Positions 7,531 to 62,366 of a stretch of 64,000 nt of DNA are shown one piece after another; within the stretch, counting starts at the first letter, position 1; each line of letters begins with the position of its first letter. This DNA is from Ruminococcus sp. Its GTDB lineage: Bacteria > Bacillota > Clostridia > Oscillospirales > Ruminococcaceae. The position numbers and the translations under genes were made by a program. The stretch is taken from the NCBI GenBank assembly GCA_020861185.1, contig JAJBSV010000007.1:52093-116092 (forward strand), given 5' to 3'. The notes beneath the pieces were generated by a model. That model was not told the origin of the DNA. It saw only the letters and a list, made by a program, of their open reading frames with translations, and did not search any database.

Positions 7531-7571
7531 AACATTCCGTTCCTTTCTTCAAAATGTAGTGCAAGGCACTC

Positions 7572-7627
7572 AAAGCCTCCCCTGAAAGGGGAGGGGGACC
7601 GCCGGCGAAGTCGGTGGTGGAGGGGTT
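7572..7627 (-). repeat. REP2 double-hairpin element (sub-type a, inverted)
   Basis: AAAGCCTCCCCTGAAAGGGGAGGGGGACCGCCGGCGAAGTCGGTGGTGGAGGGGTT. It overlaps the stop codon of the DUF4340 gene. Confidence 0.8.
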
Positions 7628-21992: not shown

Positions 21993-22022
21993 TTGACAAA
22001 TATCAGGAACATATGATATAAT
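21993..22022 (+). promoter_or_regulatory. sense promoter of cassette 1
   Basis: TTGACA (21993) - 18 nt - TGaTATAAT (extended -10; TATAAT at 22017). Confidence 0.65.
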
Positions 22023-22081
22023 ATCAGTAGCAAGCGAGTTGAAGCGGTTTGACCTTCGATAAAACTGAGGAGGTGGCTGCT

Positions 22082-22186
22082 ATGACGATTTTCGAAGTTA
22101 TTACGACGGTTTTATCTATCGTTAATCTGATGGCGGACATAGTACTTGGCATTCTTGGTCTTCGGACTGGGAATAAAAAGAAATAA
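22082..22186 (+). CDS. 34-aa hydrophobic Lys-tailed peptide (type I toxin-like; possibly holin-like-toxin family)
   Basis: MTIFEVITTVLSIVNLMADIVLGILGLRTGNKKK. SD GAGGAGGTGG lies 6 nt upstream. Not in the ORF track because it is too short. Confidence 0.65.
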   Translation: MTIFEVITTVLSIVNLMADIVLGILGLRTGNKKK

Positions 22187-22294
22187 CCGCCCGGCTTAAC
22201 TCATAAAGGGACGGTCGATTTCCAAACATAGTGCTACCGTGAGTAGCACATTTTAGGTCGAGCCGCACTGAGTGACGTTCAGTCCAACTCTCTT
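22170..22294 (-). ncRNA. predicted antisense RNA of cassette 1 (ends approximate)
   Basis: Starts about 7 nt after the minus-strand TATAAT. A possible stop is at the U-rich tract UUAUUUCUUUUUAUU, antisense to the KKK-stop codons. Confidence 0.35.
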
Positions 22295-22300
22295 GCTATT

Positions 22301-22329
22301 ATTATACCCTATCGCTGCCCGATTGTCAA
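22301..22329 (-). promoter_or_regulatory. antisense promoter of cassette 1
   Basis: Minus strand: TTGACA (22329..22324) - 17 nt - TATAAT (22306..22301). Confidence 0.65.
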
Positions 22330-22337
22330 CAGCTTTT

Positions 22338-23237
22338 TTATTTTCCGAGGAGCTCTTCAAACTCTTCCTTCGTGCAGAACGTCGTCCCTTCATGCGAGAT
22401 TGCTCCCGCCGCTGTGGTGACGGCGTACTTGAGGACGTCTTCGAGAGGCAAGTTCTTGGTCAGGGCAAGGATTGCCCCGGCAAGCATGTTGTCGCCCGCT
22501 CCCGAGGTGCTCTTGACAGGCACCTTCATAGCCGGAGCCTTGTGGCACTCGGCTTCGGAGACGATAATCGCCCCTTCTGCACCTCTTGAGACCAAGACAA
22601 CCTGCACGCCGTAATCCGAAATTATCTTTCTCGCCGCCGAGATTATCTCACTTTCGGTGGAAATCTTCCCGACGAGCGTTTCAAGTTCAAAAATGTTCGG
22701 CTTTATCATGAAGGGATGCGCCTTCAAGCCTTCTCTCAGGAGTTCGCCTTGTGCGTCCAGAATCACTTTTGCATTCGAGAGTTCACCAAGTTCACGATAA
22801 ATATCACTTCCGACGCCCTTCGGGACGCTCCCCGCAAGGACGATAAACTCGCTGTCCCCCGAGGATTCGGCAACCGAAGCCTTCAGCGCCTCGATGCTCT
22901 TTTGTGTAACTTCGGGGTTCGACTCGTTGATTTCAGCAGTCCTGCCGAGCTCGGTCTCCATAATCTTAAGATTCGTTCTGAGCGAACCCGGGCACTGGGT
23001 AAACTTGCACTCGGTACCCTCACTCCCGAGGGTTTCGGGGATAGCTTCCCCGCCGTCGAAATTGAAGCCGAGAGCACGGCTCGGGACTCCCAATCTCGAA
23101 AGAGCTCTGCTCACATTGATTCCCTTGCCGCCGATGTCGAGGCTCACAGGCTCGACCCGGTTCATGGCATCGAGGTCGAGCTTCCCGGTCTTGACCGTCT
23201 TGTCAAGACACGGGCTGAGAGTTACCGTAGTAATCAT
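22338..23237 (-). CDS. PfkB-family sugar kinase (1-phosphofructokinase / tagatose-6-P kinase type)
   Basis: DIGGKGINVSRAL and a C-terminal GAGDNMLAG motif. Confidence 0.8.
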   Translation of the reverse strand: MITTVTLSPCLDKTVKTGKLDLDAMNRVEPVSLDIGGKGINVSRALSRLGVPSRALGFNFDGGEAIPETLGSEGTECKFTQCPGSLRTNLKIMETELGRTAEINESNPEVTQKSIEALKASVAESSGDSEFIVLAGSVPKGVGSDIYRELGELSNAKVILDAQGELLREGLKAHPFMIKPNIFELETLVGKISTESEIISAARKIISDYGVQVVLVSRGAEGAIIVSEAECHKAPAMKVPVKSTSGAGDNMLAGAILALTKNLPLEDVLKYAVTTAAGAISHEGTTFCTKEEFEELLGK

Positions 23238-24647: not shown

Positions 24648-24676
24648 TGTTGACATCAAGCGAAGCGTATGATATA
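24648..24676 (+). promoter_or_regulatory. sense promoter of cassette 2
   Basis: TTGACA (24648) - 17 nt - TGaTATAAT (TATAAT at 24671). Confidence 0.7.
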
Positions 24677-24738
24677 ATAACCTCGGTAAGAGAGCGAAAA
24701 ACGGCTTGACCTTTGATAAAACTAAGGAGGTGGTCGTT

Positions 24739-24831
24739 ATGACGATTTTAGAAGTGCTCGCACTACTTAATCTGATTACGAACATAGTACTTGGCATTCT
24801 CGGCTTAACCTCCGGGAATAAAAAGAAATAG
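24739..24831 (+). CDS. 30-aa hydrophobic Lys-tailed peptide (type I toxin-like)
   Basis: MTILEVLALLNLITNIVLGILGLTSGNKKK, with SD AAGGAGGTGG upstream. Confidence 0.65.
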   Translation: MTILEVLALLNLITNIVLGILGLTSGNKKK

Positions 24832-24935
24832 CCGAGAGCTAGAGTAAAAGTCCCGACCAATTCCGATTTTAGTGCATCCCTCACAGGAGCACATATTAGT
24901 TGAGCCGGAGCTGTTACCGGCAGCTCCGCTCTCTT
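24815..24935 (-). ncRNA. predicted antisense RNA of cassette 2 (ends approximate)
   Basis: The 5' AGAGAGC can close onto GCUCUCGG just before UAUUUCUUUUUAUU. Two internal hairpins: GGAGCUG/CAGCUCC and GUGC/GCAC. Confidence 0.35.
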
Positions 24936-24941
24936 ACTGTT

Positions 24942-24970
24942 ATTATACCCCATCGCTGTTGCTTTGTCAA
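24942..24970 (-). promoter_or_regulatory. antisense promoter of cassette 2
   Basis: Minus strand: TTGACA (24970..24965) - 17 nt - TATAAT (24947..24942). Confidence 0.7.
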
Positions 24971-25001
24971 CAGCTTTTTTATTGGGTTTAAAAGGTATTT
25001 T

Positions 25002-26623: not shown

Positions 26624-27478
26624 CTATTTTTTGAAGAAGAGCACACCCAAGCAATTCGGTCCGCAGTGACATGACACCGTGCAACCGGCGTAGGTCTCTA
26701 AGATATTTTCGTCCTCGAACGGCTGTAGCTCCTTGACGAGCGCCCGAACCTTCGCGACGATATCGTCCGGCACATGCGAGTGGGTGATGAATATGCGGCT
26801 TGTGTCGATATCCGTTCTGCCCTCGAGACGTCCACGGACATAGTCAAGAATCGACTTCTCCATCGCGCCGCGATACTTCTTGCCGACAATCATGGTGTCC
26901 TCGGAAACGACAATTTCGGGGCGGATTTTGAGAAGATTCGCGCCGAACGCAGTAACTCCACTGCATCTGCCGCCCTTCTGGAGATAATCGAGCGTCTGCA
27001 AAACGAAGCTGACATCTAACTTCTCTTTCATTTCGTTCAGCCTATCTGCGATTTCCAAAGCCGAAAGCCCTTCGTTCGCGAGCTCCCTCGCCCTGATTGC
27101 AAGGTGCCCCGAACCGGTCGAGAGGTTTCTTGAGTCAATCGGGTAGACATGCCCGAGCTCCTCGGCGGCAATGCAGGCGTTCTGATAGCAGGAGGAAAAC
27201 TCGCTCGATATGTTGATGTGGACAATCTCGGCGCCCTCGTCGACATAAGGCTTGAAAACGTCCGTATATTCGGAGACCGACACGGCGGAGGTCTTCGGAA
27301 GGACTCCTGTCTCCCCGACGTAGTCGAAAATCTCAAGCGGCGTAACGTCCACTCCGTCCCGCCTCATCTCCTCACCCAGGATAGTCCCAAGCGGCACAGG
27401 CTTGATTTCATACTTCTCATAAAGCTCCGGACTCAAATCACAAGTCGAGTCGCAGGTTATGATTATTTTGGTCATCAA
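26624..27478 (-). CDS. DegV-family fatty-acid-binding protein
   Basis: N-terminal IITCDSTCDL and DegV-like length (284 aa). Confidence 0.85.
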   Translation of the reverse strand: MMTKIIITCDSTCDLSPELYEKYEIKPVPLGTILGEEMRRDGVDVTPLEIFDYVGETGVLPKTSAVSVSEYTDVFKPYVDEGAEIVHINISSEFSSCYQNACIAAEELGHVYPIDSRNLSTGSGHLAIRARELANEGLSALEIADRLNEMKEKLDVSFVLQTLDYLQKGGRCSGVTAFGANLLKIRPEIVVSEDTMIVGKKYRGAMEKSILDYVRGRLEGRTDIDTSRIFITHSHVPDDIVAKVRALVKELQPFEDENILETYAGCTVSCHCGPNCLGVLFFKK

Positions 27479-27490
27479 TATCGCCTCAAA

Positions 27491-27895
27491 TTACATCAAT
27501 TCCAAAAATTCACCTACACCGATAATTCTCGGGTCGGTTATATTCGATTCCAAAAAATCCTTGTCTCCCGTTAAAAACAAATCCGCATGGGCATCAAGTG
27601 CCGCTCTGAGAATCGGGCGGTCTTTAGGGTCGCGGATTTCTTTTTCAACATCGGTTTCTTCCTCCGGTGTCTTGACAAGACGGATATATGAAAGCGCATT
27701 GTACAAAAACGCTTCCATCTCGGTTATGCGCTCGGGGAACTTTTCTCTGAATTTTCTATGCAATTCATCCACAACATAATCACAGACAATCGGCTGAAAC
27801 GGCGGGTTTACCGCTTTATAGAAAGCGGAAGCAACCTTGCCGTTCGGGAAAAGAGCCGCAGAAATGATTATGTTAGTATCGAGCATAACTCTCAT
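27491..27895 (-). CDS. PIN-domain toxin (type II TA, VapC-like)
   Basis: MLDTNIIISA N-terminus and conserved acidic residues (LTGDKDF). Overlaps the upstream antitoxin gene by 4 nt. Confidence 0.75.
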   Translation of the reverse strand: MRVMLDTNIIISAALFPNGKVASAFYKAVNPPFQPIVCDYVVDELHRKFREKFPERITEMEAFLYNALSYIRLVKTPEEETDVEKEIRDPKDRPILRAALDAHADLFLTGDKDFLESNITDPRIIGVGEFLELM

Positions 27896-28164
27896 TCTTC
27901 GTTTTCCTCACGTCTTGAAGCAGTAATCCACTCCGCAACATCATCCTCAGAGTTGAAGCCGGCTTTTTTGGCTTCACCCTTCATCTGCTCCTGAAATTTC
28001 TGCATAGCATAAACAGCCGAATTGACGACCTTTACCGTTCCGTTTTCGAATATGAACGTCACACGGTCTCCCGTTGAAATACCGAGAGCCGCCCGAATAT
28101 TCTTCGGAATTGTGACCTGTCCCTTGGACATCACTCTTGCATCGTTTACCAATACATCAGGCAT
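27892..28164 (-). CDS. AbrB/SpoVT/MazE-family antitoxin
   Basis: SKGQVTIPKNIRAALGISTGDRV swapped-hairpin motif. Confidence 0.75.
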   Translation of the reverse strand: MPDVLVNDARVMSKGQVTIPKNIRAALGISTGDRVTFIFENGTVKVVNSAVYAMQKFQEQMKGEAKKAGFNSEDDVAEWITASRREENEE

Positions 28165-28188
28165 ATAAAGACCTCCAGTCTTAAAAAA

Positions 28189-28244
28189 GTAGGAAAGTAG
28201 GAATTTCCTACTTTTATTATATCCTATCTTCGGCTTATTGTCAA
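28189..28244 (-). promoter_or_regulatory. promoter and palindromic operator of the AbrB-PIN operon
   Basis: Minus strand: TTGACA (28244..28239) - 17 nt - TATAAT (28221..28216). The perfect palindrome GTAGGAAtTTCCTAC (28197..28211) sits at the predicted start site, next to an AGTAGGAA direct repeat. Confidence 0.6.
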
Positions 28245-28306
28245 TCGTTTTCTATTCCGAGAGTTTGCTTCGCAAACTCTCTAAGTTCGACGCAGTCGAA
28301 CTTGTC

Positions 28307-30874: not shown

Positions 30875-30904
30875 TTGACACACTGGGGAAACATATGATA
30901 TAAT
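30875..30904 (+). promoter_or_regulatory. sense promoter of cassette 3
   Basis: TTGACA (30875) - 18 nt - TGaTATAAT (TATAAT at 30899). Confidence 0.6.
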
Positions 30905-30967
30905 GCTCGTAGCAAATGCGGGGACACGCGGGCGCACTCCAGTCTGAAAGGAAGGGAGTGATAGCAT

Positions 30968-31090
30968 ATGAGTATTACGGAAGTTCTTTTGCTTCTTGAC
31001 ATACTTCTGTCGGCTGTTTCCCACAGATGCGTAGCATCTATGTTATCAACTCGGTTCCCACCGAAAGAAATAACCGCATCTTGTAGTTAG
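30968..31090 (+). CDS. 40-aa divergent small ORF of cassette 3 (possibly a frame-shifted toxin remnant)
   Basis: MSITEVLLLLDILLSAVSHRCVASMLSTRFPPKEITASCS. The family-type C-terminus (..LGSHRKK-stop) is present only in the +1 frame. Confidence 0.4.
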   Translation: MSITEVLLLLDILLSAVSHRCVASMLSTRFPPKEITASCS

Positions 31091-31181
31091 CAAAGATAGC
31101 GGCTCTTCTCACATACTTAGTTATCACGGAGACGCTTGTTTATCTGAACTGACACTTCGGATGAAACTGTCCCCGTTTGCT
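31055..31181 (-). ncRNA. predicted antisense RNA of cassette 3 (ends approximate)
   Basis: Lies downstream of the minus-strand consensus promoter. Extent inferred by analogy with copies 1, 2 and 4. Confidence 0.25.
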
Positions 31182-31187
31182 ACCAAT

Positions 31188-31216
31188 ATTATAACTCCTC
31201 GCTGTTGATTTGTCAA
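31188..31216 (-). promoter_or_regulatory. antisense promoter of cassette 3
   Basis: Minus strand: TTGACA (31216..31211) - 17 nt - TATAAT (31193..31188). Confidence 0.65.
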
Positions 31217-31224
31217 CAGCTTTT

Positions 31225-32475
31225 TTATTTGACGCTGAACGTCTCCGATACATCAGACAGCACAATATCATCATCTGTGCAAACAATCGTGAATCCGTCG
31301 TAATAGACCGAATAGATTCCGTCTGCGGCGAGGGCTTCAAGCTTTGATTCGTCGAGGGTGTCGGCGATATAGGTGTCTGTCAGCCCGAGCAGCAGGTCGG
31401 CGCAGGTCGCTGAATCGGAATAGAGCACCAGGTCCTCGGTTGCGGCTTTGCAGAGACCGTCGGTGGGATCGATATAGGGGTTTCTCGTTTCGCCGTCCTC
31501 ATAGGTATAGTAGCGCAAAGCGTCGTCCGAGGTGATTGCATAGTCATGTGCGTAAACAAAGCTCATCGCACCTTCATAAATCATATCGGCGACCGAATAA
31601 ACGGTGTCGCCCTCCCTCGAATAGAGAGTATAGGAAAACAGCTCGTCGCAACCGCCAAGGTTTCTGGTGAAGCCGTCGGCAGAGCCGATTATTCCGGCGG
31701 TATAGCCGTTTTCAATCATCACATCCGAAATATAGTCGACAACAAACGCGTTCGTCATCCACGAAAAGTCGATGAAGCTGTCGATTCCCATCTCTTCGGC
31801 ATACTTAAGATACTCGTCCGAAACGTTCAATATAACCGTGTTGTCCTCAAGAAACTCCAAAGCTACATGCTCGTCCGTGCCGACGAACCCGAGAACCTCG
31901 GCGAAATACTCCGCCTCGACGTCGTTATAAAGCGGGTCGAATTCCTTCGCCTGCCAGTCTTCATCCGAGAAGAAAAGGCTCTCGTATTCCGAATAAATCG
32001 GTCCGAGATAAATCTCACGTCCGCCACTCTCAACCATCGTCTCAAGTGCCGAATAGAGCACCTCGTCGACCACTATTTCCTCATTCGGGTGGTTGTTTAT
32101 ATACCAGACGTTAAAGACATATTCATATTCCGTGTCGGGCGTGAAGAGCTGATAAGCCGTTTCGCAGGCATCCGAATAGATGACGACTATCGCCTTGCGC
32201 TCGGTAGTCGCAGATTCACTTCCAGCGCCGATGTCGTACATAAACGTGAGCTCCGTCGCGACGCTCAGGTCGTCGACGTCCGCCTCTATCTCCTGCCAGC
32301 CGTCCGTGCCGGAAAAAAGCTCGTTGATGGCATAGCCAAACGCCGTTGCCGCAATCAGCACCAGGAGTACAACCGCGACAATCCGAAGACCGATATGCGA
32401 GGTCGAAATCTCGACGTTCTCGACCGGCTTAGGGCTCAAGTTACTTGTATGAATTCGTGACCTTGTAGATTTCAT
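31225..32475 (-). CDS. hypothetical membrane-anchored protein (416 aa)
   Basis: N-terminal TM segment (LRIVAVVLLVLIAATAF) and an acidic ectodomain. I recognise no family. Confidence 0.5.
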   Translation of the reverse strand: MKSTRSRIHTSNLSPKPVENVEISTSHIGLRIVAVVLLVLIAATAFGYAINELFSGTDGWQEIEADVDDLSVATELTFMYDIGAGSESATTERKAIVVIYSDACETAYQLFTPDTEYEYVFNVWYINNHPNEEIVVDEVLYSALETMVESGGREIYLGPIYSEYESLFFSDEDWQAKEFDPLYNDVEAEYFAEVLGFVGTDEHVALEFLEDNTVILNVSDEYLKYAEEMGIDSFIDFSWMTNAFVVDYISDVMIENGYTAGIIGSADGFTRNLGGCDELFSYTLYSREGDTVYSVADMIYEGAMSFVYAHDYAITSDDALRYYTYEDGETRNPYIDPTDGLCKAATEDLVLYSDSATCADLLLGLTDTYIADTLDESKLEALAADGIYSVYYDGFTIVCTDDDIVLSDVSETFSVK

Positions 32476-40951: not shown

Positions 40952-41189
40952 TAGACCTCGCAAATTTAGGCGATAATGCAAAAAACGTCGCCGATTTTTC
41001 ACGGCATTTTGGACAATTTGAAGGTTGCAAAATCCGAAAAGTAAGCGAAACTGGAAGCCTTTGTAAAGGAAACATAAAATCCGCCATGACGGTTCGTGTA
41101 CGAAAAAATTCATATTCGGCAATTTTTCGGGCGGAAGGGTGAGGATTTTGCAAGTTTGAGATTTCAATAATTCATGGCAGGGGAATAAA

Positions 41190-41260
41190 TGTAGGGGCGG
41201 ATATCATCCGCCCGTTTGTTGGTTGACTGCTGGTTCGGGCGGATAATATCCGCCCCTACA
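41190..41260. repeat. REP1 palindromic element, copy B
   Basis: TGTAGGGGCGGATATCATCCGCCCG - 21 nt - CGGGCGGATAATATCCGCCCCTACA. Confidence 0.85.
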
Positions 41261-41289: not shown

Positions 41290-41342
41290 AAAGGCTCCCC
41301 TACGCTTAGGGGAGCTGGCTTGCAAAGCAAGACTGAGAGGTT
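41290..41342 (+). repeat. REP2 double-hairpin element (sub-type b variant)
   Basis: GGCTCCCCTacgcttAGGGGAGCTGGCTTGCaaaGCAAGaCTGAGAGGTT. It overlaps the metA stop codon. Confidence 0.7.
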
Positions 41343-45984: not shown

Positions 45985-46014
45985 TTGACAACGTGTTCGA
46001 ACATATGCTATAAT
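45985..46014 (+). promoter_or_regulatory. sense promoter of cassette 4
   Basis: TTGACA (45985) - 18 nt - TGcTATAAT (TATAAT at 46009). Confidence 0.65.
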
Positions 46015-46071
46015 GCTTGTAGCAAGAGAGCACGGCTTGACCTTTTACATTTGTAAAGGGAGGTGGCTTGT

Positions 46072-46164
46072 ATGACATTTGCAGAAGTTATTCTTTTGTT
46101 GAATTTCATCTCGTCCATCGTCTTTGGAATTCTCGGTTTAACGACCGGGAACAAAAAGAAATAG
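46072..46164 (+). CDS. 30-aa hydrophobic Lys-tailed peptide (type I toxin-like)
   Basis: MTFAEVILLLNFISSIVFGILGLTTGNKKK, with SD AGGGAGGTGG upstream. Confidence 0.65.
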   Translation: MTFAEVILLLNFISSIVFGILGLTTGNKKK

Positions 46165-46270
46165 CCGAGAGCTAAAGTAACAAAGTCCCCGACCAATTCC
46201 ACTTTTAGTGCAGCCTTGAGTTGCACATTTAAGGTTGAGTCGAGGCTGTTCGCAGCAACCCCGCTCTCTT
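46150..46270 (-). ncRNA. predicted antisense RNA of cassette 4 (ends approximate)
   Basis: Lies downstream of the minus-strand consensus promoter. It is complementary to the sense 3' UTR and the stop-codon region. Confidence 0.35.
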
Positions 46271-46276
46271 GCTTTT

Positions 46277-46305
46277 ATTATAACCCATCAAGGCTATTTT
46301 GTCAA
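46277..46305 (-). promoter_or_regulatory. antisense promoter of cassette 4
   Basis: Minus strand: TTGACA (46305..46300) - 17 nt - TATAAT (46282..46277). Confidence 0.7.
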
Positions 46306-46333
46306 TAGCCTTTTTTATTTGCTCAATAGGGGC

Positions 46334-48273: not shown

Positions 48274-48978
48274 GTGAAGCGGATTGTCGGAGAGTCGGAC
48301 AACATCGTCTTCTTCGGCGGCGCCGGAATGTCGACCGAGAGCGGCGTGCCCGATTTCCGCTCAGTGGACGGGCTGTATAACCAGAAATACGACTATCCGC
48401 CCGAGACGATACTCAGCCACTCCTTCTTCGAGGCGCACCCCGACGTCTTCTACGAGTTTTATCGCGACAAGACAATCGGACCGATGGTCGACGCCGAGCC
48501 GAACAAGGGGCACCTGAAGCTCGCCGAATGGGAGCGTGAGGGGAAGCTCAGGGCTGTCATCACCCAAAACATCGACGGGCTTCACCAGAAGGCAGGCTCA
48601 AAAGAAGTCTTGGAGCTCCACGGCTCCGCCGACAGGAACTACTGCCCGAAGTGCGGCAGGATTTTCTCGATGCGGGACATCCTTGAGGGAACAGGAATCT
48701 TCCGTTGCCCCGACTGCGGGAAAATCGTCCGCTCAGGAGCCGTCCTCTATGAGGAGCCGCTCGACGACAGCGTCGTAACCAAGACTCTTCACTACATCCG
48801 CAATGCCGACGTGCTGATAGTTGCCGGCACCTCGCTCGCCGTCTATCCGGCGGCAGGTTTCATAAACTACTACCCCGGCAACAAGCTCGTCTTCATTGAG
48901 AAGAATCCGAGTGTCACCAACCGCCGCGCCGACTATACCCTCCATGGCAAGGCGGGGGAGATATTGGATAGGCTATAA
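48274..48978 (+). CDS. cobB: NAD-dependent protein deacylase (Sir2 family)
   Basis: GAGMSTESGVPDFRS, TQNIDGLH and a Zn ribbon (CPKC...CPDC). GTG start. See the finding on the in-frame upstream ATG...TAG. Confidence 0.85.
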   Translation: MKRIVGESDNIVFFGGAGMSTESGVPDFRSVDGLYNQKYDYPPETILSHSFFEAHPDVFYEFYRDKTIGPMVDAEPNKGHLKLAEWEREGKLRAVITQNIDGLHQKAGSKEVLELHGSADRNYCPKCGRIFSMRDILEGTGIFRCPDCGKIVRSGAVLYEEPLDDSVVTKTLHYIRNADVLIVAGTSLAVYPAAGFINYYPGNKLVFIEKNPSVTNRRADYTLHGKAGEILDRL

Positions 48979-48980
48979 CC

Positions 48981-49015
48981 AAAAAAATAAGTACCCTACG
49001 GGTACTTATTTTTTT
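48981..49015. terminator. bidirectional intrinsic terminator
   Basis: A7-TAAGTACCC-tac-GGGTACTTA-T7. Confidence 0.75.
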
Positions 49016-49028
49016 GGTGGGAGAGGAT
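49015..49028 (-). other. 14-nt duplicate of the tRNA-Tyr 3' end (acceptor/CCA remnant)
   Basis: TGGTGGGAGAGGAT is identical to 49203..49216. Confidence 0.7.
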
Positions 49029-49172
49029 ACGCATTCTGCTCCGCAGAATGCGGTGAAAATCGGTTCTTCTTTATCGGATTGAGCCTGAACGCACTTCTGC
49101 ATTCCTTAAGCATTCGGAATGCACGACGCCGATTTTCATCCGAGCTCTTCATACATCCCCATCAAACCAAAC

Positions 49173-49198
49173 AAAAAACACCCATAAAGGGTGTTTTT
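49173..49198. terminator. bidirectional intrinsic terminator after the tRNA pair
   Basis: A6-CACCC-ataaa-GGGTG-T5. Confidence 0.7.
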
Positions 49199-49202
49199 CA
49201 TT

Positions 49203-49288
49203 TGGTGGGAGAGGATGGATTCGGACCATCGAAGCTGAAAAGCAACAGATTTACAGTCTGCCCCCTTTGGCCACTCGGGAACTCTCCC
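49203..49288 (-). tRNA. tRNA-Tyr (GUA), class II with long variable arm, CCA encoded
   Basis: Reverse complement: GGGAGAG..CCCGAGTGGCCAAAGGGG..GACTGTAAATC..long variable arm..GATGGTCCGAATCCATC CTCTCCC ACCA. Confidence 0.9.
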
Positions 49289-49323
49289 ATATTTGATTTA
49301 CAGAAAGCCATCAGGCTTACTTG

Positions 49324-49399
49324 TGGAGCTGGTGGACGGACTTGAACCCCCGACCTGCTGATTACAAATCAGCTGCTCTACCAACTGAGCTACACCAGC
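49324..49399 (-). tRNA. tRNA-Thr (UGU), CCA encoded
   Basis: Reverse complement: GCTGGTG TA GCTCAGTTGGTAGAGC A GCTGA TTTGTAA TCAGC ... CACCAGC T CCA. One G-G mismatch in the T stem. Confidence 0.88.
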
Positions 49400-56466: not shown

Positions 56467-56521
56467 AACCCCTCCACCGGCTTCGCCGGTCCCCCTCCCC
56501 TTTCAGGGGAGGCTTTTTTTT
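56467..56521 (+). repeat. REP2 element (sub-type a), acts as the galM terminator
   Basis: AAACCCCTCCACCGGCTTCGCCGGTCCCCCTCCCCTTTCAGGGGAGGC followed by T8. Confidence 0.8.
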
Positions 56522-56549
56522 GCTCTCGCAAAAGTTTGTGCAGAATACA

Positions 56550-56601
56550 AAAAGGCTCCCCTGAAAGGGGAGCTGGCGCCCGAAGGGCGACTGAGGGGTT
56601 T
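56550..56601 (+). repeat. REP2 element (sub-type b), inverted partner of 56467..56521
   Basis: AAAAGGCTCCCCTGAAAGGGGAGCTGGCGCCCGAAGGGCGACTGAGGGGTTT. Confidence 0.8.
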
Positions 56602-60895: not shown

Positions 60896-60952
60896 AAACC
60901 CCTCCACCACCGCCTTCGGCGGCGGTCCCCCTCCCCTTTCAGGGGAGGCTTT
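60896..60952 (+). repeat. REP2 element (sub-type a) between argG and argH
   Basis: AAACCCCTCCACCACCGCCTTCGGCGGCGGTCCCCCTCCCCTTTCAGGGGAGGCTTT. It abuts the argH RBS. Confidence 0.8.
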
Positions 60953-60990
60953 GACTACCTACTACAAAAAGTTGTGATAGAAGGAAAATA

Positions 60991-61036
60991 GGCTCCCCTG
61001 AAAGGGGAGCTGTCAGCGAAGCTGACTGAGGGGTTT
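60991..61036 (+). repeat. REP2 element (sub-type b), inverted partner; overlaps the argG stop
   Basis: GGCTCCCCTGAAAGGGGAGCTGTCAGCGAAGCTGACTGAGGGGTTT. Confidence 0.8.
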
Positions 61037-62270: not shown

Positions 62271-62293
62271 GTTGATTTCCTCCAATGATTTAT

Positions 62294-62366
62294 TGTAGGG
62301 GCGGATATCATCCGCCCGTTATTTCGTCGCGATGGCAGGTTCGGGCGGATAATATCCGCCCCTACA
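62294..62366. repeat. REP1 palindromic element, copy C
   Basis: TGTAGGGGCGGATATCATCCGCCCG - 23 nt - CGGGCGGATAATATCCGCCCCTACA. Confidence 0.85.

Follow-up and report, generated by a model that had tools for sequence, protein, structure and literature searches.

A 64,000-nucleotide (nt) stretch of a Ruminococcus sp. genome (GenBank assembly GCA_020861185.1, contig JAJBSV010000007.1, positions 52,093 to 116,092 of the forward strand; called the window below, with positions in its own numbering) contains four copies of a ~340-bp cassette, each of which is probably a chromosomal type I toxin-antitoxin (TA)-like module of the bsrG/SR4 design described from Bacillus subtilis. The initial annotation of the window had already proposed a type I TA-like reading, and this is supported by all features that can be tested in silico, namely a transmembrane (TM) peptide that appears to be under purifying selection, a predicted convergent and structured antisense RNA, and RNA structure that is specific to one or the other strand.

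Four cassettes with facing consensus promoters

The four copies lie on the plus strand at 21993..22344, 24648..24983, 30875..31230 and 45985..46320, exactly where they had initially been placed, as confirmed by alignment, a repeat search and nhmmer (E ~1e-107 for copies 1, 2 and 4, and 8e-16 for copy 3). Mean column identity over the ~340-bp alignment of the four copies is 67%. Every copy carries, on the plus strand, a promoter matching the consensus at 12 of 12 positions (TTGACA-N17/18-TATAAT with a TGn extended -10 element), in full agreement with the initial annotation, and a second 12/12 promoter on the minus strand, ~300 bp downstream, that faces the first. The antisense promoters lack the TGn extended -10 element found in all toxin promoters. 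The 64-kb window has ten perfect promoters, of which eight are cassette-borne, and the pattern of an antisense promoter with Lys-Lys-Lys-stop 95-125 nt away has three matches in the window versus 0.00 expected from shuffles. The Shine-Dalgarno (SD) sequence of the cassettes is strong and reads GGAGGTGG or GGGAGGTGG, the leader is ~53 nt long, and the two cassette ends, each comprising a promoter and the first ~10 transcribed nt, are inverted repeats. A hairpin followed by T6 had been described as the terminator of each copy, which holds in general, but the hairpin of copy 1 is weak. The features are listed below with open reading frames (ORFs), minimum free energies (MFE) and z-scores against shuffles.

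Copy 1
21993..22022, + strand: toxin promoter, TTGACA-N18-TGnTATAAT, 12/12 with TG
22029..22341, + strand: predicted toxin mRNA; MFE -103 kcal/mol, z -4.75; conserved helices with compensatory changes
22029-22040 with 22286-22297, + strand: 5' and 3' arms of the mRNA closing helix, from the fold
22044-22057, + strand: leader anti-SD; 22067-22076, + strand: SD
22082..22186, + strand: ORF MTIFEVITTVLSIVNLMADIVLGILGLRTGNKKK, by translation; maximum hydropathy 2.12 over 19 residues
22171..22297, - strand: predicted antisense RNA with three hairpins, the third being the predicted terminator; fold z -3.6, covariance model 112 bits
22301..22329, - strand: antisense promoter, 12/12, its -35 box within the toxin terminator hairpin
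22314..22339, + strand: toxin terminator, weak, four clean pairs then T6; read from the sequence, missed by the terminator scan
Copy 2
24650..24678, + strand: toxin promoter, 12/12 with TG
24685..24982, + strand: predicted toxin mRNA; MFE -99.3 kcal/mol, z -5.2; terminator hairpin at 24955-24974, from the terminator scan
24739..24831, + strand: ORF MTILEVLALLNLITNIVLGILGLTSGNKKK, by translation
24816..24938, - strand: predicted antisense RNA; fold z -4.1, covariance model 108 bits
24942..24970, - strand: antisense promoter, 12/12
Copy 3
30875..31230, + strand: whole cassette, divergent
30875-30904, + strand: toxin promoter
30911-31228, + strand: predicted mRNA with a long 5'-3' helix; fold z -4.9
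30968-31090, + strand: ORF of 40 amino acids, no Lys tail
31216-31188, - strand: antisense promoter
31201-31220, + strand: terminator
Copy 4
45985..46014, + strand: toxin promoter, exact consensus
46021..46318, + strand: predicted toxin mRNA; MFE -95 kcal/mol, z -5.6
46072..46164, + strand: ORF MTFAEVILLLNFISSIVFGILGLTTGNKKK, by translation
46149..46273, - strand: predicted antisense RNA; covariance model 119 bits, fold z -1.4
46277..46305, - strand: antisense promoter, exact consensus

The divergent copy 3 retains both promoters, the SD, the 5'-3' helix and the terminator; indels place its ORF out of frame with the KK-stop, and its antisense region folds no better than shuffles (z -0.07) and gives no match to the antisense covariance model described below. 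Because the ORF is shifted off the KK-stop and the antisense region no longer folds, copy 3 is probably toxin-dead, that is, a copy with an inactivated toxin ORF.

The small ORF is a gene under selection

Copies 1, 2 and 4 encode hydrophobic peptides of 30-34 amino acids with a single predicted TM segment and a KKK C-terminus, and translation reproduces the sequences given in the initial annotation exactly. Maximum hydropathy over 19 residues is 2.1-2.3 for the window peptides and 2.24 for the B. subtilis toxin BsrG. Within the 16 closest cassettes, differences at codon positions 1, 2 and 3 stand at 476:183:753, the median ratio of nonsynonymous to synonymous substitution rates (dN/dS) is 0.24 over 58 pairs, and ORF indels are multiples of three, with the 30- and 34-amino-acid forms differing by 12 nt. 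Given this codon-position bias, the dN/dS value and the indel lengths, the comparison of sequences indicates that the ORF is a real gene under purifying selection. The ORF also contains a hairpin just 5' of the Lys codons, AUUCUCGG...CCGGGAAU, at 22140-22170 of the window and at equivalent positions elsewhere (columns 154-177 of alignment A3), which is 96.9% paired and has two-sided changes at three of eight pairs.

Gene callers nearly never report these peptides, with 11 representatives among 1.84 billion proteins, none of them named. A product identical to the copy 4 peptide is annotated in one public assembly, where it adjoins mreB; an exact look-up of the copy 1 peptide returned no record.

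A long-distance helix closes the predicted toxin mRNA

The predicted ~300-nt toxin mRNAs of copies 1, 2 and 4 fold far beyond shuffles (z -4.75, -5.2 and -5.6). The first 10-12 nt of each (~10-25 nt in the overall reading of the cassettes) pair with the 3' untranslated region (UTR) directly upstream of the terminator. Within a 16-sequence alignment, from which the helix statistics given here were derived, this 5'-3' closing helix is 99.3% paired and shows two-sided changes at six of nine pairs. In divergent subfamilies the arm sequences are unrelated yet complementary, at times through G·U pairs, and across subfamilies cognate arms pair at -19.9 kcal/mol versus -11.7 kcal/mol for non-cognate arms.

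The leader segment that follows has alternative partners, either a segment of the 3' UTR (97.2% paired) or the SD region (96.9%), and the same 3' UTR segment can instead pair within the 3' UTR (92.9% paired). All three of these helices (leader with 3' UTR, leader with SD, and 3' UTR-internal) carry G·U pairs that are valid on the toxin strand only. The SD can sit in a predicted leader hairpin. A helix between the SD and an anti-SD in the 3' UTR is 93.7% pairable, without covariation.

A predicted structured antisense RNA would end on the Lys codons

From the antisense promoter we predict a minus-strand RNA of ~125 nt with three hairpins. A covariance model of this RNA, built from 13 sequences, found 24 instances. 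In the antisense alignment 93.3% of cells are paired, versus 35-54% when the partners are slid, and 16 of 26 pairs show two-sided changes; the observed values were reached by none of 500 shuffles. The predicted RNA is fully complementary to the toxin 3' UTR from the closing-helix 3' arm to the Lys and stop codons, and the stop codon lies 90-139 nt (median 106) from the antisense -10 box.

After the third antisense hairpin comes UAUUUCUUUUU, which is complementary to the AAA-AAG-AAA-TAA/G codons. In the stem of this hairpin there are positions with G·U pairs in 17-19 of 23 sequences, which become C·A mismatches on the toxin strand, and the hairpin is therefore under antisense-strand selection, as expected of a terminator. 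As read from the sequence, the U tract of the putative antisense terminator is templated by the Lys and stop codons of the toxin, so that the Lys tail is coupled to the antitoxin terminator. The ends of the cassette, which the initial annotation had described as symmetric, can therefore be understood as the footprint of an RNA helix and of an antisense RNA whose predicted start falls within the helix, in its 3' arm.

Related cassettes are numerous and turn over at fixed sites

The further copies that the initial annotation had thought worth seeking were found: nhmmer recovered ~30 full related cassettes. A scan of GTDB genomes with the architectural pattern gave 117 loci, and a regular-expression scan of the genome and viral loci gave at least 45 distinct ORFs with the convergent-promoter layout. 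Nearly all related cassettes come from Oscillospiraceae, Ruminococcus and other Clostridia metagenome-assembled genomes (MAGs). Eight IMG/VR viral contigs (L122, L126, L139, L143, L149, L155, L174 and L195) also carry them, with peptides such as MTVQETLMLLNLLAVVIFGVINITKKK, a parallel to the presence of bsrG on prophage SPbeta. One Oscillospiraceae MAG contig holds ~8 tandem cassettes within 4.7 kb (L039, 380-4720), with several peptide subfamilies and in both orientations; type I loci typically occur in several copies and in tandem (Fozo 2010, PMC2887945).

Of the relatives found, Oscillospiraceae bacterium U.11_4 (loci L083 and L103) is the closest; its flanking genes have 81-86% nucleotide identity to those of the window, and it differs at three of the four cassette sites, the rimP (copy 1) site lying outside the loci compared. 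Copy 2 is absent from L083, where a different hairpin repeat, of the GGCTCCCCTGAAAGGGGAGC type, occupies the site; at the CotH site (L083, 7623-7998) a copy-1-type cassette in the opposite orientation stands in place of copy 3; and between the GH25 and mreB genes (L103, 1945-2274) there is a cassette of another subtype, 68% identical. On this comparison of sequences, cassettes turn over at fixed intergenic sites, which fits selfish TA modules.

In the window, the genes neighbouring the cassettes are on the minus strand, as had been remarked initially, and are unrelated genes (rimP-nusA, a pfkB kinase, a Na/H exchanger, a CLC channel, a CotH protein, a GH25 enzyme and mreB). A rule by which the toxin lies opposite to its neighbours was rejected: among relatives, by a crude ORF call, 19 cassettes are opposite and 14 in the same orientation.

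Proposed mechanism and its weighing against alternatives

We propose that in each cassette the very strong extended -10 promoter would drive a ~300-nt mRNA for a single-TM, Lys-tailed peptide of 30-34 amino acids, and that the 5' end of this mRNA would pair with its own 3' UTR just ahead of the terminator, closing the molecule. The convergent consensus promoter, with its -35 box in the toxin terminator hairpin, would give rise to the three-hairpin antisense RNA. By analogy with bsrG/SR4, this RNA would pair with the 3' UTR and displace the 5' arm of the mRNA, the released leader would refold onto the SD, and the long duplex would be cut by RNase III, so that the peptide would not be made while the antisense RNA is present. 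If made, the peptide would be expected, by the same analogy, to insert in the membrane and harm or arrest the cell.

Several observations weigh against this proposal. In thermodynamic modelling, the mean probability that the SD is unpaired is 0.23 in the free mRNA versus 0.17 with the 3' UTR blocked, so that the SD is mostly paired in both states and a strong antisense-induced SD switch is not supported; the modelled block does move the SD partner towards the leader in many sequences. Since SD accessibility barely changes in the model, duplex decay would be the safer guess for the action of the antitoxin. Judged by its sequence, the toxin promoter looks no weaker than that of the antitoxin, an unusual arrangement for a TA module, and every functional claim for the cassettes (expression, toxicity and RNase III) is inferred by analogy. 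Some proteins of similar type, YhzE-2 among them, were not toxic when tried (Fozo 2010, PMC2887945). Rfam searches returned two tRNAs only over the window at the gathering score, and nothing credible in copy 1 at E<=10.

The protein family models also weigh against the proposal. The initial annotation had noted a resemblance to the holin-like toxins of the Hol_Tox family and had suggested a Pfam scan of the four peptides; BsrG and TxpA are indeed Hol_Tox proteins, but the window peptides have no match to Hol_Tox (PF16935) at E<=10, and against Pfam and NCBIfam together they gave nothing but PRK13682.2-2 for copy 2 (E 0.013). Among 37 architecture-sharing peptides, 13 match Hol_Tox and no other family recurs, the best match being 19.9 bits (E 6.8e-4); none reaches the gathering threshold of 23.3 bits. 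BsrG, used as a positive control (sequence from PMC4342826), scores 34.5 bits, and TxpA relatives also carry PF16935. An hhalign comparison to BsrG/TxpA gave a probability of 25% (E 7.8e-4), over the N-terminal 22 columns only and with a four-sequence reference alignment. Common descent of the cassette peptides with BsrG and TxpA is plausible.

In another reading the peptide would be a non-toxic small membrane protein, perhaps a regulator or a stress peptide, whose synthesis a cis-antisense RNA adjusts through the same RNA logic but without addiction or killing. The housekeeping contexts of the cassettes (rimP-nusA, mreB), the predicted occlusion of the SD in all states and the harmlessness of YhzE-2, which was found by similar criteria (PMC2887945), would all suit such a peptide. 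We nevertheless consider this unlikely, as the design and the Lys-tailed TM peptide match those of the proven toxins BsrG and TxpA, one copy has an apparently inactivated ORF, and the multi-copy occurrence, tandem arrays, presence or absence between close relatives and location on viral contigs are the behaviour of selfish TA modules. The inverted-repeat, promoter-bearing ends also invite a bolder idea, in which recombination at fixed hot spots between genes, beside essential operons, would swap, invert or replace cassettes and thereby re-wire the transcription of their neighbours, while the like 5' ends of toxin and antitoxin RNAs would set up a three-way competition for a single 3' arm as the regulatory core; we regard this combination as quite improbable.

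Much the same ends could be read as the ~45-bp terminal inverted repeats of miniature mobile elements resembling miniature inverted-repeat transposable elements (MITEs), in which the ORF and RNA structure would be incidental and any outward effects would come from the carried promoters. In favour of this account, the cassettes occur in several copies and between genes, the relative lacks copy 2 at the syntenic site, and different or inverted cassettes are found at other sites. However, the ORF is under purifying selection, no target-site duplication was seen at the copy 2 junctions, and the cassettes were for these reasons not assigned to MITE-type elements despite their inverted-repeat ends. 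The helices, moreover, keep their pairing through compensatory changes and G·U pairs, so that the constraint is on RNA pairing and not on DNA identity of the ends; the window copies are only ~67% identical, which speaks against a recent burst, and there is no transposase among the nearby genes. Together these points leave the mobile-element account very unlikely, and mobility through recombination stays compatible with a TA module. The cassettes could also serve mainly as promoter and terminator insulators, in which case the minus-strand promoter would drive the operons downstream of it on that strand (rimP-nusA-infB, Na/H exchanger, CotH, GH25) and read-through would be stopped by the plus-strand unit. 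All four antisense promoters in the window are indeed co-oriented with the flanking genes, and the upstream genes have no obvious minus-strand terminator before the cassette. Such a role is hard to reconcile with the conserved terminator that the antisense unit itself carries right after ~125 nt, with the promoter-like site that rimP has of its own, with the orientation towards neighbours, which is not conserved in relatives, or with the inverted cassette at the CotH site of L083, and we think it highly improbable. A leaderless bacteriocin was rejected as well, since the nearby genes include neither a transporter nor an immunity gene and the logic of the antisense RNA is contrary to it.

Other features of the window

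A VapBC-like type II TA pair lies on the minus strand at 27476-28306, with a PIN_3 protein (27491-27895) and an AbrB/MazE-like antitoxin (27892-28164). The promoter of this operon (28244-28216) is a perfect consensus match similar to the antisense promoter of the cassettes, and L083 lacks the whole segment in its syntenic region. The right end of the cassette has a fifth match, at 28203-28257, which is only the promoter of this operon and was rejected as a cassette.

Short intergenic hairpin repeats with the look of repetitive extragenic palindromic (REP) or MITE-like elements are of two types, GTAGGGGCGGATATCATCCGCCC (1158-1236, 41183-41260 and 62287-62366) and GGCTCCCCTGAAAGGGGAGC (7551-7596, 41290-41342, 56471-56600 and 60907-61012). 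Two tRNA genes on the minus strand (49206-49399) are flanked by a terminator-like repeat pair (48977-49028 and 49165-49216).

Significance

Outside Clostridioides difficile, earlier homology searches had found type I toxin homologs in two Clostridial species only, C. bolteae and C. asparagiforme. The cassette family would add dozens of loci in uncultured gut and rumen Oscillospiraceae, and it offers an unusually clean comparative data set, whose covariation, seen on either strand, would extend support for the bsrG/SR4 refolding model beyond Bacillus. The cassettes deserve annotation, as they place very strong promoters beside essential operons, and they might find use as compact RNA-controlled kill switches for Clostridia.

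Comparison with known systems

A full-text literature search for the peptide strings yielded no relevant paper, and a search for a description of such cassettes in Oscillospiraceae or gut Clostridia found none. The architecture nevertheless has clear counterparts among characterised type I systems, to which it relates as follows.

The Enterococcus pAD1 par locus (fst/RNA II) resembles the cassettes in that its promoters converge over a few hundred bp, its toxin is a small TM peptide and its SD is sequestered by mRNA structure. Its RNAs, however, interact through 5'-end direct repeats outside the overlap and share a bidirectional terminator, whereas the cassettes have complementarity in the 3' UTR and separate terminators. 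The cassettes do not fit the Fst/RNA II group: the window peptides have no match to the Fst model in NCBIfam, and the cassette ends are inverted rather than direct repeats, so that the two cassette RNAs have like and not complementary 5' ends.

Closer in taxonomy are the type I TA systems of C. difficile (CD2517.1/RCd8 and others), which belong to the same class, Clostridia, and have convergent overlapping genes, toxins with a hydrophobic N-terminus and a Lys-rich C-terminus, and frequent location on prophages; these toxins are longer, at 50-53 amino acids, and are reported to lack homology to other type I toxins. Of the Gram-negative systems, hok/sok and aapA1/IsoA1 likewise keep the full-length toxin mRNA locked by a long-distance 5'-3' interaction, but their antisense RNAs target the 5' region, their activation needs 3' trimming, and their peptides and hosts are unrelated.

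The txpA/RatA system of the B. subtilis skin element, with its relatives EF3263 and SprG/SprF, has a Hol_Tox peptide together with an antisense RNA, 3'-overlapping and ~110-220 nt long, by which mRNA decay is promoted. TxpA is longer, with 59 amino acids and a long polar tail, and a sequence relation to the window peptides is not demonstrable (hhalign probability 25%). Antisense RNAs overlapping on the 3' side are the rule in Gram-positive families (T1TAdb).

The closest counterpart is bsrG/SR4 of prophage SPbeta, in the BsrE-G-H group. The bsrG mRNA is 296 nt long, and its helix P1, formed by nt 1-35 and nt 232-262, lies one nt from the terminator (PMC3834814). The SD lies in a 4-bp helix, and binding of SR4 frees the 5' arm and extends the SD helix to 8 bp (PMC3834814), as well as triggering RNase III decay of the mRNA (PMC3834814, PMC8309996). 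Our fold of the SPbeta bsrG locus reproduces P1 (z -7.3). The predicted SR4 promoter is convergent to bsrG, and adding the published length of 180 nt puts the SR4 3' end at the AAG-AAA-AAA-TAG codons, so that these Lys and stop codons would template the U tract of the SR4 terminator. On prediction from sequence, the cassettes share with bsrG/SR4 a ~300-nt mRNA whose ends are paired in a long helix abutting the terminator, an SD inside a helix, a 30-38-amino-acid peptide that starts M-T-x-[YF]-E and ends KKK, a convergent antisense RNA over the 3' UTR and last codons, and Lys-stop codons at the 3' end of the antitoxin (predicted here, inferred in SPbeta). The initial annotation had not recognised this combination as a characterised system, a view that we revise, as the closing helix, the SD helix, the 3'-overlapping antitoxin and the overlap of Lys codons with the terminator reproduce bsrG/SR4.

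The two systems also differ. The predicted cassette antisense RNA is ~125 nt long versus 180 nt for SR4, and the antisense covariance model scores only 17.5 bits on the SR4 region of SPbeta. The predicted 5' end of the cassette antisense RNA falls in the closing-helix 3' arm, on the upstream side of the toxin terminator, whereas SR4 starts ~60 nt beyond the bsrG terminator; unlike SR4, the cassette RNA repeats the toxin 5' end at its own 5' end and has its -35 box in the toxin terminator. The window peptides, unlike BsrG, do not match Hol_Tox, and tblastn of phage and plasmid records gave no match for the copy 1 peptide, with the BsrG control found in 18 phage records. The cassettes reside at housekeeping intergenic sites in Oscillospiraceae and bsrG on a prophage, and both cassette promoters, in contrast to those of bsrG/SR4, are perfect matches to the consensus. 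Taken together, the comparison of sequences and predicted structures supports the view that the cassettes would work like bsrG/SR4, with the differences amounting to compaction and promoter quality.

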